NCBI GenBank assembly: GCA_005889345.1
Contig: VBFR01000230.1
Coordinates: 1-60,430 of the forward strand
Source: Chloroflexota bacterium
GTDB taxonomy: Bacteria > Chloroflexota > Dormibacteria > CF-121
DNA length: 60,430 bases
Direction: 5' to 3'
Shown: piece by piece, positions 14,447 to 23,103 of the stretch
Layout of the letters: each line of letters starts with the position of its first letter
Position numbering within the stretch: position 1 is the first letter of the stretch
Position numbers and translations under genes: made by a program
Notes under the pieces: generated by a model
Database searches by the model: none
What the model was told of the DNA's origin: nothing
The model's input: only the letters and a program-made list of their open reading frames with translations

Positions 14447-16966
14447 GTGTTCGGGAAGATTTACGTCCCCCTTGATAACTCGGACCATTCCAACGCCGCC
14501 ATCGAGGTGGCGGTCCGGCTGGCCGGCGCCACGAAAGCGACCCTGGTGGGCAGCCATGTCTACGCCGCCCGCATGCACGACGTGCGCTTCAAGCAGATGG
14601 AGTACACGCTGCCGGAGGAGTACCAGCACGAGCAGGAACTCGAGCGCCAGCGCAAGATCCATGACTCGCTGATCACGCGCGGCCTGCAGCTGATCTCTGA
14701 TTCCTACCTGGACGTGATGAAGACCGCCTGCGATCGCGCCGGCCTACCGTTTGAGTACAAGACGTTCGACGGCAAGAACTGGGAATGTCTGGTCGACGAT
14801 ATCGCCGCGTCTGACTACGACCTGGTGGTGCTGGGGGCGCTTGGCATGGGGGCCGTCAAGGACAGCCTGGTCGGGAGCGTGACGGACCGCGTCGTGCGCC
14901 GCATCCGCGTCGACTCCCTCGTGGTTCGCGACACCCATCCGTTTCGCGATGACGCTTCCAATCGGATCGTGGTCGCCATCGACGGTAGCCCCCAATCCTT
15001 CGCCGGCTTGCGGACCGCGATCGATCTCGCGCGGATTTTCGAGAAGCAGGTCGAGGCCGTGTCTGTCTACGACCCCTACCTCCACTACGCAATGTTCAAT
15101 GGCATCGTCGACGTGCTGTCGGCCGAAGCATCGAAGGTGTTCCGCTTCAAAGAGCAGGAACAGCTGCACGAAGAGATCATCGACACCGGCCTCGCCAAGA
15201 TCTACGAGTCCCATCTGCGGGTGGCGCAATCCGTGGCGCGCGACGAGGGGATCGAGGTCAAAACCACGCTCTTCGACGGCAAGGCCTTCAAGAAGGTCCT
15301 GCAGTACGTCCGCCAGGACCCGCCCTGGCTGCTGGTGATCGGGCGCATTGGCGTCCATTCCGCCGCGCAGATGGACCTCGGCAGCAATACGGACAACCTG
15401 CTTCGCCTGGCGCCGGTCAGCGTGCTGCTGTCGAGCCGCACCTTCGTGCCACCTGTCGACGTGCAGGCCGAGGCGAGCGTGACCTGGACGGAGGAGGCCG
15501 AAGCGCGCATGGAGCGGGTTCCCGCGGCCTTCCGCGCGATCACTCGCACCGCCATCTGCCGCTATGCGATGGAACGCGGGCATTCCGTCATCAGCTCCTC
15601 GATCATCGACCTCGCCGTCTCCGAGGTCATGCCCGAGCACGCGGCCCGCGCCATGGGGGTCGAGCCGGCGCGGGCGAAGGCCGCGATGGGCGGCGACGAG
15701 GGCACCGCCACCTGGATCTGCCGCCGGTGCGGGCGTCCGGCGCGCGTGGAGAAGCCGCAGGAATGCCCGGTCTGCGCGGGTACCAGCTTCCAGCCGGTTG
15801 ACAAGGCCGCGGTCGCGGCGGCCGCCACCAGGGAGGGAGGCACCGAGGAGGAAGAGGCGTTCGACGGCTTCAAGGTCAAGTGGACAGCCGACGCCAAGGA
15901 GATTCTCAACCGCGTCCCCAAGGGGTACGAACGGCGCCGCGTAAAGGCGCGCATCGAAAAAATCGCCCGGGTGCAGCGCCTTCCCAGCATCACCCGCGAT
16001 TTCGCCGACGCCAACCTGGATGAGGCGTACGGGCCGGTCGCCGAGGTGGTCAGCGACACTCTGCCGGCGGCGGCAAAGCCGGTGGGCGAGGCGCAACTGA
16101 CCTGGACCGACGAGGCAGCGGCGCGGATGGAGCGGGTGCCGGGCGGCTTCATGCGGATGATGGCCCGCACCAAGGTCGAGGAGTTCGCCCGGAAGATCCG
16201 GGCCGAGACCATCACCCGCGATGTCGTCGAGGGCGGCCTCGTCGACGCACGGATGATGATGGACCAGGCGCTCAAGGCGCACTCACCCGAGGTGGTCGAG
16301 GCCGCCCTGAAAGTACACGGCCACCCGGACGGGAACGGCGCCGAGCCGCGCGAGCCATCGCCGGGCTGGACCGAGGATGGGGTCCGACGGCTCAACGAGG
16401 TCGAGATCCGCGCCCAGGAAAAATTCGACCCGTCCCGCGCTCGCGAGCTCGCCCAGCATGCGGCCGAATCGCGCGCCGCGCGAACCTCGGAGGCGATCAA
16501 TGCGGCTTTTCTCGAGCGGTTGGGGATCAAGATCGGCTACGGACATCCGCTCAGCCCCAAAACCTTCGAGCACCAGTTCACCTGGTCGCCCGAGGCGGAA
16601 GCGCGCCTCGCCAATCTGCCCTCCTATTGCCGGGAGCTAAGTCGCTGGCGCGTCGAATGGACTGCGGCCAAAAAGGGGCTCGGCCCGGTGATCACCCCCG
16701 AGGCGATGGACGTCAAGTTCGAGATGTGGGACGAAGTTTCGCAGGCGCTCCAGGAGAAAGGTCCACAGATGCCCTGGGAGCCGGCCGCCGAGCAACGGCT
16801 CGAGAACATGCCCGCGTTTGTCAAAGGCCAGGTAATGGCAGCGGTCGAGGGCAGCGCCCAGGAGCTTGGGGAAGAGCGCGTCACGAGCAAGGTGATGGAC
16901 GTCGTAATCCAGAAGTGGATCGAGACCGGCGATTTCCATGAAGGTCGATACGGCTTCCGAGCCTAG
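14447..16966 (+). CDS. Multidomain protein: two universal stress protein domains, a rubredoxin-like CxxC/CPxC module and about six PCP_red-like repeats
   Basis: USP1 (IYVPLDNS...VVLGALG...VGSVTDRVVR), USP2 (IVVAIDGS...LVIGRIG...LGSNTDNLLR), WICRRCG-x8-ECPVC, and repeated W-x3-A-x2-R-(M/L)-x2-(V/M/L)P-x-F helical units; SD GGGAGGGAG. Confidence 0.85.
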   Translation: MFGKIYVPLDNSDHSNAAIEVAVRLAGATKATLVGSHVYAARMHDVRFKQMEYTLPEEYQHEQELERQRKIHDSLITRGLQLISDSYLDVMKTACDRAGLPFEYKTFDGKNWECLVDDIAASDYDLVVLGALGMGAVKDSLVGSVTDRVVRRIRVDSLVVRDTHPFRDDASNRIVVAIDGSPQSFAGLRTAIDLARIFEKQVEAVSVYDPYLHYAMFNGIVDVLSAEASKVFRFKEQEQLHEEIIDTGLAKIYESHLRVAQSVARDEGIEVKTTLFDGKAFKKVLQYVRQDPPWLLVIGRIGVHSAAQMDLGSNTDNLLRLAPVSVLLSSRTFVPPVDVQAEASVTWTEEAEARMERVPAAFRAITRTAICRYAMERGHSVISSSIIDLAVSEVMPEHAARAMGVEPARAKAAMGGDEGTATWICRRCGRPARVEKPQECPVCAGTSFQPVDKAAVAAAATREGGTEEEEAFDGFKVKWTADAKEILNRVPKGYERRRVKARIEKIARVQRLPSITRDFADANLDEAYGPVAEVVSDTLPAAAKPVGEAQLTWTDEAAARMERVPGGFMRMMARTKVEEFARKIRAETITRDVVEGGLVDARMMMDQALKAHSPEVVEAALKVHGHPDGNGAEPREPSPGWTEDGVRRLNEVEIRAQEKFDPSRARELAQHAAESRAARTSEAINAAFLERLGIKIGYGHPLSPKTFEHQFTWSPEAEARLANLPSYCRELSRWRVEWTAAKKGLGPVITPEAMDVKFEMWDEVSQALQEKGPQMPWEPAAEQRLENMPAFVKGQVMAAVEGSAQELGEERVTSKVMDVVIQKWIETGDFHEGRYGFRA

Positions 16967-21736: not shown

Positions 21737-23103
21737 TCGCCCTGCTCGCCCTCATCGCCCCGGCGTTCCACGGGCTGCAGACGCAGCTGCCGGCGCAAGC
21801 CCCACAGGGAAACAACATCGTCGGCGCCCAGATCGCGATCGGCAGCCTGTTCTCGCTGCACATCCTGATCGCGGGGCTCGTCAGCGGCGCCGCGGAGCTG
21901 GGGCCGGCGATCGAGTTCCTCGGCTACGTGCGGCAGCGTCGCAACTACGACCGCCTCGCCCACGGCCTCGGCCGCTTCATCACCTACTACTTCAGCGTCA
22001 GCTCCACGATCGCCATCCTGCTGATCACGGTGCTGCTGGTCGGCTTCTGGGGACACTTCTGGACGACGATCGTGACGATCGGGTGGTGGCCGCTGTTCAT
22101 CGAGGCCTGGACCTTCGTCCTACAAGTCAGCCTCGCCTACCTCTGGTACTACACCTGGGAGCCGATGCGCGCCTTCAAGGGCGTGCACATGGCGATCGGC
22201 GGCCTGCTGGCCGTCGCCTCCTTCCTGCAGGTCTACATGATCGACGTCATCGCCAGCTACATGCTGACGCCCACCAATCCGCAGAATCCCGTCCGGCTCG
22301 CCCTCAACCCCACGTCGTACCCGCTCACGGTGCATCGGACGGTCGGCAACCTCGCCTACATCGGATTTGCCTTCGGCGGCTTCTGCGCCATCCGCTACCT
22401 GCGGGCGAAGACTGCCGAGAACAAGCGCTTCTACGACTGGGCTGGCAGCTTTGGGCTGTTGTGGGGCGTTTCGATGACGCTGCTCCAGCCCGTTGTCGGT
22501 TATTCCTATGCCAAAGAGATCCAGCTGCACAGCTACGGCAGCTGGTACAAGATGATGTTCGGCTCGCTCAGCCCGGTCTTCCTCTGGCAGATCACCCTGC
22601 TCGGGATCATGTTCCTCACCGCCACCCTCTATTTCGCCCGCCGGCTGCGCACGGATGAGGCCCGTGGGTCGGGGATCCTGAAGCTGCTGGCCGTGGGGAT
22701 GGTGCTGACGACGCTGCTCGCGGCCCAGCCCTACGCCCTCGGCTTCTCCTACGAGACGGTGGCCGCCGCGGGCCTCAACCGCCCGTTCTGGGACGGCGGC
22801 CTGATCAATCCGCTGGGATCGATGATCCCCTGGAAGGTCCTGGCGCTGATGTTCTACACGCTGATCGCGATCGCGGCGGTGGTCTGGTACCTTCGCGGCC
22901 TGCCGGGCGTCGTCTGGGGATCCGCCCGCCGCGGCGAGCAGCGAATCCTGATGCTGATGACGATCCTGACCATGCTCATGATGGTCACCATGGGGTTCAT
23001 CCGCGAGAACGGTCGCGGGCCCTACCTGATCTCCGGCGAGATGACGATCCAGGGCCAGCAAGCCGTGCCGAGCGCCCAACCGACGCCGCAGTCCAGTCCG
23101 TAG
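21733..23103 (+). CDS. Cytochrome bd subunit I-like membrane protein (divergent, copy B)
   Basis: TM1 His (LFSLHILIAG), YMLTP, ALNPTSYPLTVHRTVGNL, C-terminal MGFIRENGRGPY; GTGA overlap with cytochrome b. Confidence 0.78.
   Translation: MIALLALIAPAFHGLQTQLPAQAPQGNNIVGAQIAIGSLFSLHILIAGLVSGAAELGPAIEFLGYVRQRRNYDRLAHGLGRFITYYFSVSSTIAILLITVLLVGFWGHFWTTIVTIGWWPLFIEAWTFVLQVSLAYLWYYTWEPMRAFKGVHMAIGGLLAVASFLQVYMIDVIASYMLTPTNPQNPVRLALNPTSYPLTVHRTVGNLAYIGFAFGGFCAIRYLRAKTAENKRFYDWAGSFGLLWGVSMTLLQPVVGYSYAKEIQLHSYGSWYKMMFGSLSPVFLWQITLLGIMFLTATLYFARRLRTDEARGSGILKLLAVGMVLTTLLAAQPYALGFSYETVAAAGLNRPFWDGGLINPLGSMIPWKVLALMFYTLIAIAAVVWYLRGLPGVVWGSARRGEQRILMLMTILTMLMMVTMGFIRENGRGPYLISGEMTIQGQQAVPSAQPTPQSSP

Follow-up and report, generated by a model that had tools for sequence, protein, structure and literature searches.

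Organisation of the operon

We analysed an eight-gene operon in a 60,430-nucleotide stretch of DNA from a Chloroflexota bacterium of the Dormibacteria (GenBank assembly GCA_005889345.1, contig VBFR01000230.1, positions 1 to 60,430 of the forward strand), which encodes a Rieske protein and a cytochrome b between two proteins related to subunit I (CydA) of the cytochrome bd oxidases. The whole stretch, with a G+C content of 65%, is referred to below as the window. The operon spans positions 14447-23103 on the + strand; its eight open reading frames (ORFs) overlap or nearly abut, with junctions from gene 1 to gene 8 of -29, -4, +7, -1, -14, -1 and -4 nt. Domains in all eight proteins were called with Pfam. 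Gene 1 (14447-16966) encodes an 839-residue protein with two Usp domains (1.4e-39) and five PCP_red domains (1.3e-43), and is followed by genes for an ATP-binding cassette (ABC) ATPase (gene 2, 16938-17894; ABC_tran, 8.5e-29) and a 235-residue ABC-2 permease (gene 3, 17891-18598; ABC2_membrane and ABC2_membrane_3). The two bd-like proteins, of 416 and 456 residues, are encoded by gene 4 (18606-19856) and gene 8 (21733-23103) and match Cyt_bd_oxida_I with E-values of 3.5e-13 and 5.6e-13, respectively. Between them lie the genes for a 78-residue membrane protein with two hydrophobic segments (the two-transmembrane or 2-TM protein; gene 5, 19856-20092), a Rieske [2Fe-2S] protein (gene 6, 20079-20570; Rieske, 4.3e-11) and a 388-residue cytochrome b (gene 7, 20570-21736; Cytochrome_B, 2.6e-42, and Cytochrom_B_C, 3.2e-07). 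The frame of the last of these is open from 20378, and the GTG at 20570, which is preceded by GAGGAG and overlaps the stop codon of the Rieske gene by one base, is its likely start.

ORF coordinates and Pfam assignments bear out the first-pass annotation of this DNA, which had described eight genes on one strand, in this order, joined by overlaps or gaps of 7 nt or less. It had also stated that the operon encodes no haem c motif and neither CydB nor CydDC; a scan of all eight proteins found no CxxCH, and no CydB or CydDC-type gene lies inside the operon. Promoter- and terminator-like sites within the 14447-23103 block showed no excess over shuffled expectation. In a comparison with NCBIfam no model attained cut-off against the eight proteins, and for three of them, the bd-like pair and the 2-TM protein, there was no match of any kind.

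The two bd-like subunits

The bd superfamily has been divided into the qOR, OR-C and OR-N groups (Murali, Gennis and Hemp, 2021; bioRxiv 10.1101/2021.01.16.426971). As set out in the main text and supplementary tables of that preprint, OR-N5a and OR-N5b are two CydA paralogues without a Q-loop that are co-encoded with homologues of petA, petB and petD, with quinol inferred as the donor; OR-N is scored as present in Dormibacterota (Table S3), and the residues kept in each subfamily are tabulated together with the similarities of CydA/CydA' pairs (Table S6).

Gene 4 and gene 8 of the operon are 27% identical over 406 residues (E 6e-33). Both exceed the cut-off of the CydA profile PF01654, each with 49 bits, and the match covers profile positions 3-239 of 418 in gene 4 and the N-terminal part, ending at about position 240, in gene 8. 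Its confinement to the N-terminal half of the profile, with the short connections that follow TM6 in the predicted structure of gene 8, indicates that both proteins lack a Q-loop; no residues could be aligned with K252 and E257. This AlphaFold model (pLDDT 78.6, pTM 0.79) has about ten long membrane helices, one of them kinked, after an N-terminal helix, and no long periplasmic loop. The top ten matches of the model to folds in the Protein Data Bank (PDB) are all subunit I of solved bd oxidases (probability 1.0); a sequence search of the PDB with gene 8 returned no match, the bd relationship being visible there by fold search only. The hydropathy profile of gene 4 has 11 peaks, some of them overlapping.

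Six residues of gene 8 (H43, E124, Q131, H152, H201 and E425) align, with the same spacing, with H24, E104, E111, H132, H183 and E406 of the N5a reference, and occupy the positions of H19, E99, E107, H126, H186 and E445 of the E. coli enzyme. Alignments of 10 and 20 orthologues, with identities as low as 35%, show no variation at H43, E124 and H201 and almost none at E425; most orthologues also have the His of position 152, which is Arg or Lys in three distant loci. At position 131, that of E107, the lineage of the window has Gln, whereas most orthologues further away have Glu. Gene 4 retains H36, H144 and H192 at the positions of H19, H126 and H186, and has A116 and T123 at the channel-glutamate positions and Thr at that of E445. 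These three substitutions match A115, T122 and S405 (S/E/T) of the N5b reference, from which gene 4 deviates at His144, where the reference has Asn137. By this residue signature gene 8 is N5a-like, the putative catalytic-type subunit, and gene 4 is N5b-like. The labels 'bd-like A' and 'bd-like B' given to gene 4 and gene 8 in the first-pass annotation hold as far as the pair itself is concerned, with the letters running opposite to the published nomenclature, in which gene 8 would be a and gene 4 would be b.

In a maximum-likelihood tree of 90 sequences, the CydA of E. coli and the canonical CydA of this genome form a separate clade with 99% support, and both proteins of the operon pair lie far from it. 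The gene-4-type and gene-8-type proteins of every locus form two sister clades with mirrored internal topology, which argues for one old duplication.

The Rieske protein, cytochrome b and small membrane protein

The Rieske protein carries a twin-arginine motif (SRRQF), one TM segment that would serve as its anchor helix, and the cluster-binding boxes CTHMQC and CPCHGG, all read from the sequence; its nearest solved relatives are the Rieske proteins of b6f- and bc-type complexes. For cytochrome b the nearest PDB entry is a cytochrome b6 (7.8e-47), and the C-terminal part, fused through a linker, resembles subunit IV (5e-06). Conservation extends to both His pairs, with a 14-residue His spacing in helix D, and to the Qo motif PEWF; the haem-ci Cys is absent from this protein and present in the other cytochrome b6 of the genome. 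A gene for a protein of 73-86 residues stands at the position of the 2-TM gene in most related loci, with no invariant residue, and was not detected in L029, L032 and L033. The 78-residue protein is probably a small structural subunit, to judge from its two hydrophobic segments and its position.

The USP-PCP_red protein and the ABC-2 exporter

The 839-residue protein has no TM segment and is soluble. Its N-terminal ~330 residues form a tandem universal stress protein (USP) module, with the sequence motif G-x2-G-x9-G-S in both USP domains, and the predicted model of this half matches the ATP-bound proteins TTHA0350 and Rv2623 as well as the transporter-linked USP TeaD. A rubredoxin-like Cys4 knuckle (C425, C428, C440 and C443) is nearly invariant in 19 orthologues, and the site of one orthologue matches a rubredoxin-like Pfam model. 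The PCP_red repeats lie at approximately residues 347-389, 479-519, 553-595, 713-754 and 777-818, with the consensus W-T/S-x-E/D-A...R-L/M-x-x-V/L/M-P, and correspond to the C-terminal ~50 residues of BchB/ChlB as well as to Asr4154, a small protein of Nostoc (2L09). Within this genome PCP_red is restricted to the 839-residue protein. Tandem ATP-binding USPs such as TTHA0350, M. tuberculosis Rv2623 and E. coli UspE thus share the fold and the ATP motif of its N-terminal 330 residues, whereas the operon protein carries in addition the Cys4 knuckle and, five times over, the C-terminal module of BchB/ChlB, a subunit of the dark-operative protochlorophyllide oxidoreductase (DPOR), and strictly co-occurs with one respiratory enzyme. 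The C-terminal part of BchB adjoins the protochlorophyllide pocket, and from this position, the one basis for the idea, we suspect that the PCP_red repeats may bind a tetrapyrrole. A literature search on PCP_red/PF08369 returned nothing useful.

In several Dormibacteria families the region corresponding to residues ~626-838, which holds the last two PCP_red repeats, is a separate gene, often divergent from the N-terminal part or located elsewhere. This split arrangement occurs in genomes G083, G119, G164, G173, G216, G232, G312, G320, G336, G344, G384 and G400.

The ABC ATPase of gene 2 is of the DrrA/NodI (ABC-2) type: its top NCBIfam match is drrA, below cut-off, and its CcmA score is 87.7 bits against a cut-off of 131.6. 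No NCBIfam match to CcmB was obtained among the operon proteins. The catalytic His of the H-loop is replaced by Asn in a motif A/S-T/S-N-D (here ATND) that is kept in all eight aligned orthologues, including that of the distant locus L037; the signature motif reads YSLGM. CcmAB and CydDC are haem-handling ABC systems, the former with a separate ATPase and ABC-2-like permease and the latter built of fused ABC_membrane half-transporters. By analogy, the operon pair may be likened to them as an ABC exporter that is co-encoded with a haem enzyme and seems to serve it exclusively; it belongs to neither family, given the CcmA score below cut-off, the DrrA/NodI-like best match and the Asn of the H-loop.

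Conservation and co-occurrence of the eight genes

The search for homologous proteins returned close relatives only, with at least 80% identity; these come from soil metagenome-assembled genomes (MAGs) labelled 'Chloroflexi bacterium' or 'Candidatus Dormibacterota/Dormibacteria'. A narrow alignment search for related loci with gene 4 reached Dormibacteria only, and genes in the high-GC relatives were called with a codon-position GC filter. The order of the eight genes is kept in all 33 Dormibacteria loci wherever the contig extends far enough, with gene 4 down to 44% identity, and one of the 33 (L027) is without the ABC pair. With this order kept in 33 loci, the block is not a chance arrangement.

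Five distant loci, with gene 4 at 30-36% identity, conserve the same five-gene core of bd-like protein, 2-TM protein, Rieske protein, cytochrome b and second bd-like protein. A homologue of the USP-PCP_red gene adjoins the core in four of these five, one of them in a cluster annotated as Myxococcales. An ABC ATPase gene follows the core in two of the five; in L037 it is succeeded by an ABC-2 permease gene, and in the other the contig ends inside the ATPase. On the 150-kb contig of L037 the USP-PCP_red homologue upstream of the core (7941-9833) is broken into several frames, through either decay or indel errors of long-read sequencing, and beside it a separate gene for a 195-residue PCP_red protein lies on the opposite strand. 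In the Myxococcales-type locus L035, the region 16176-19836 holds genes for a VKOR-DsbA protein, two CbiA/ParA-ferredoxin (Mrp-like) proteins and two NifX/NifB-like (Nitro_FeMo-Co) proteins.

Co-occurrence was scored by profile hits in 401 evenly sampled Chloroflexota genomes. Of these, 34 were hit by the N5a (gene 8) profile, and the USP-PCP_red protein occurs in precisely this set, the remaining 367 being without it (Fisher 4e-50, uncorrected for phylogeny). Homologues of the ABC-2 permease (E<=1e-10) occur in 26 genomes, all of them within the 34 that bear the oxidase genes. Four genomes of family f5 (G216, G336, G344 and G384) retain all three parts on different contigs, which the corresponding regions of G216 confirm; the genes around the unlinked USP-PCP_red gene in G216 are unrelated metabolic genes that give no clue to function. 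That the oxidase, the USP-PCP_red protein and the ABC-2 exporter are retained even where they are unlinked points to a functional dependence and not just to shared location. We regard the link of the accessory genes to the OR-N5-type enzyme as certain, and the strict coupling of OR-N5 to a USP-PCP_red protein and its ABC-2 exporter is the new element of this study.

Other respiratory genes of the genome

The assembly comprises 3.23 Mb in 306 contigs and is 88% complete. On contig C200 (1144-3499) a canonical cydA split over two frames (near 1720-1880) precedes an intact cydB; the split is either a frameshifted pseudogene or an assembly error. The two CydA fragments score 185 and 172 bits against the Pfam profile, compared with the 49 bits of the operon proteins. 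Contig C272 (12169-18377) encodes a second Rieske protein, a cytochrome b6 with the haem-ci Cys that is split from subunit IV, a 338-residue cytochrome with three CxxCH motifs, a COX2 whose C-terminus is fused to a plastocyanin-like copper domain, and COX1. The earlier remark that the system has no cytochrome c therefore stands for the operon and fails for the genome, in which a tri-haem cytochrome c lies beside the second Rieske/b6 set. The 88%-complete assembly yielded no CcsA/CcmC-family gene; six of seven operon-bearing relatives, including both same-genus genomes, possess one. The idea that the operon lacks cytochrome c through an inability of the organism to mature it is ruled out by these CcsA-family genes together with the tri-haem cytochrome c. 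The lineage makes c-type cytochromes, so the lack of cytochrome c in the operon is a property of the enzyme and not of the organism.

Assignment to the OR-N5 class

The operon is very probably an OR-N5-type locus. With OR-N5, as presented in the main text and tables of Murali et al. (2021), it shares two CydA-like paralogues of about ten helices, without a Q-loop or a haem c motif, whose genes flank those of a Rieske protein and cytochrome b/subunit IV. Operon and OR-N5 also agree in which haem and channel residues are retained or lost and in their host groups (Dormibacterota and 'Chloroflexi bacterium' MAGs). The operon differs from the reference given there in the Gln at the second channel Glu of its N5a-like protein, in the His at the H126 position of its N5b-like protein (Asn in the reference) and in the fusion of petB and petD; a term search of the main text of that preprint found no mention of the 2-TM gene, the USP-PCP_red gene or the ABC-2 pair. 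The pairs listed in its Table S6 include WP_143528031.1/WP_143528035.1 of Rubrobacter xylanophilus and TMC48000.1/TMC47996.1 of a 'Chloroflexi bacterium', with 28% similarity. In a sister MAG, the orthologues of our pair (TMC31951.1/TMC31947.1) show the same distance of four accessions that a five-gene core would give. In Nitrospirales, genes for another quinol-oxidising module, alternative complex III (ACIII), immediately precede those for an 'OR-N5 type CydAA'' (PMC12342949, 2025).

Canonical CydAB(X) oxidases (qOR1-3; E. coli 6RKO, G. thermodenitrificans 5DOQ) share the subunit-I fold and the equivalents of H19, E99, H186 and E445 with gene 8, whereas the operon has no Q-loop, quinol site of its own, CydB or equivalent of Met393, and the partner subunit is a second CydA paralogue. 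The haem c motif CxxCH found in subunit I of OR-C is missing from the operon proteins. Cytochrome b6f and the Bacillus-type bc complex have in common with the operon a Tat-anchored Rieske protein with both boxes, a b6-like cytochrome b with the 14-residue spacing in helix D, and PEWF in the subunit-IV part; in contrast to them, the operon encodes no cytochrome f, c1 or di-haem c, lacks the haem-ci Cys, and has b6 and subunit IV fused.

A proposed electron path and its alternatives

As a whole, the explanation that we favour, with moderate confidence, is an OR-N5 complex in which the Rieske protein feeds the bd-like pair and which is served by a dedicated accessory module. What we observed directly is the gene content, the synteny, the conservation of residues, the fold, the phylogenetic placement and the strict co-occurrence; we infer that the proteins form a physical complex, which haems it contains, that O2 is its acceptor and what the accessory genes do. 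The membrane complex would consist of the Tat-exported Rieske protein, the b6/subunit-IV-type cytochrome b, the two-helix subunit, gene 8 and gene 4. Quinol would be oxidised at the Qo site of cytochrome b, with one electron recycled through the two b haems in a Q cycle and the other passing by way of the Rieske cluster, on the outer face, to a b-type haem at the H186-position His of a bd-like subunit. This haem would stand in for cytochrome c1 or f, and electrons would then reach a high-spin haem site in the N5a-like subunit (H43, E124 and E425), where O2 would be reduced. That the enzyme is a quinol:O2 oxidoreductase with direct reduction of a bd-like haem by the Rieske cluster seems to us to stand slightly better than even. 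The USP-USP-Cys4-PCP_red protein and the ABC-2 exporter would be dedicated accessory parts, most likely a cytoplasmic nucleotide-sensing module for cofactor delivery, assembly or gating. The core of the first-pass proposal, a Rieske protein that feeds a bd-like heterodimer without cytochrome c and has a maturation or regulatory module of its own, is thus still the best reading and has been strengthened by the synteny and co-occurrence data.

Several findings count against this explanation. A same-genus genome that is 95% complete lacks the oxidase, the USP-PCP_red protein and the ABC-2 permease altogether, so the module is dispensable. In L035 a cytochrome c gene (14734-15396) directly follows the second bd-like gene. 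No OR-N chain is among the PDB fold matches of the gene 8 model, and placement in the named N5 clades relies on residue signature, architecture and the published tables. Neither MqnA/D of the futalosine pathway (PF02621) nor MenD (TIGR00173) turned up in searches of the 88%-complete assembly, and we have dropped 'menaquinol', which the first-pass annotation had named as the donor. The Met sixth ligand of haem b558 (Met393) has no counterpart in the bd-like proteins, the second proton-channel glutamate of gene 8 is Gln in the lineage of the window, and the genome holds canonical CydAB and a bc/cytochrome c/heme-copper oxidase set. No report of the purification, spectrum or structure of an OR-N5 enzyme was found in the literature searched, so that both O2 reduction and a direct step from the Rieske cluster to a haem are still conjectural. 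Nor did that literature yield a report of the haem content, substrate, O2 affinity or energy yield of OR-N5 enzymes, or anything relevant on Dormibacter and cytochrome bd. The O2 affinity of OR-N oxidases is stated to be unknown (PMC12342949).

Some of these points feed directly into the view that the bd-like pair is not a terminal oxidase at all. The presence of canonical CydAB and of the bc/cytochrome c/heme-copper oxidase set makes a non-oxidase role of the operon conceivable: the pair might be a haem-b wire that replaces c1 or f and passes electrons to another acceptor, such as a soluble cytochrome c or the COX2 cupredoxin, or it might reduce NO, H2O2 or a nitrogen oxyanion. In favour of such a role, two recognised O2 reductases and a COX2 bearing a plastocyanin-like domain are already encoded in the genome; the bd-like proteins have no Met ligand for haem b558, and Gln replaces one channel Glu; the second bd-like gene of the Myxococcales-type locus has a cytochrome c gene behind it; and no measured substrate was found for any OR-N enzyme. 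Yet the equivalents of H19, E99 and E445, which build the O2 site, are invariant or nearly so in gene 8 and in very distant orthologues, where a simple wire would have no need of them, and in Dormibacteria the operon contains no gene for a further acceptor. We regard this non-oxidase or other-acceptor role, the chief rival of the favoured explanation, as unlikely. A wholly undescribed respiratory system, as the first-pass annotation had it, is far less probable still, and for the core it does not hold. It could draw on the lack of any NCBIfam model at cut-off, on bd-like and 2-TM proteins without a single match among these models, and on public annotations in which the names of the bd-like proteins are 'hypothetical protein' or a generic 'cytochrome bd subunit I'; but the main text and tables of Murali et al. 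(2021) already contain the architecture, the inferred quinol donor, the residue table and the presence in Dormibacterota, and OR-N5, the name given there to the core, is an established label in PMC12342949. The architecture has accordingly been catalogued from genomes, and no biochemical characterisation of it was found.

For the accessory genes, the alternative is that the USP-PCP_red protein acts as a stress or energy-state regulator, an ATP-dependent brake or activator of the kind proposed for other operon-encoded USPs, rather than as a delivery or assembly factor, with the substrate of the ABC-2 exporter unrelated. The ATP-binding glycine motif of both USP domains and the fold match to ATP-bound TTHA0350, Rv2623 and transporter-linked TeaD fit such a role, the conserved replacement of the catalytic H-loop His by Asn points to hydrolysis that is slow or serves regulation, and L027 and eight of the 34 genomes have no detectable ABC-2 partner. 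Five PCP_red repeats and a nearly invariant Cys4 site would be unnecessary for a plain nucleotide switch, however, and this subfamily of ABC-2 permeases is found only in oxidase-bearing genomes (26, against 0 of 367). We think the purely regulatory role somewhat unlikely; regulation and delivery or assembly are in any case compatible. The delivery or assembly role can be put in a more specific form, which is a little less probable again and which we offer as speculation: the USP-PCP_red protein and the Asn-H-loop ABC-2 exporter would make up an unrecognised, dedicated cofactor-delivery and checkpoint system for OR-N5 enzymes, in which PCP_red holds haem or a precursor, the USP domains couple its release to nucleotide state and the exporter inserts or flips it, for a Rieske/cytochrome b-bd supercomplex that respires O2 with a Q cycle and without copper or cytochrome c.

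If O2 is indeed the acceptor in the OR-N5 complex that we favour, OR-N5 would be a third link from the Q cycle to O2, one without cytochrome c or a heme-copper oxidase. Its hosts include abundant uncultured soil Dormibacteria, the cultured Rubrobacter, and Nitrospirales, and the co-occurrence data name the accessory genes that probably need to be co-expressed for an active enzyme.

Neighbouring genes in the window

The operon is preceded by an aldose epimerase gene and followed, after 4 nt, by a convergent CvpA/trypsin-like gene, both unrelated to it. Further along the window, one long frame on the + strand (50223-52979) combines a luciferase-like monooxygenase domain with a UbiA-family prenyltransferase, and its 3' end is overlapped by a frame for an Rce1/CPBP-like protease. 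A menG-type methyltransferase was considered for its divergent neighbour (49585-50229, - strand) and rejected, Pfam identifying a CDP-alcohol phosphatidyltransferase. Directly upstream of the CvpA/trypsin-like gene, and co-directional with it, lies a small 2Fe-2S ferredoxin (Fer2) gene (24286-24552, - strand).

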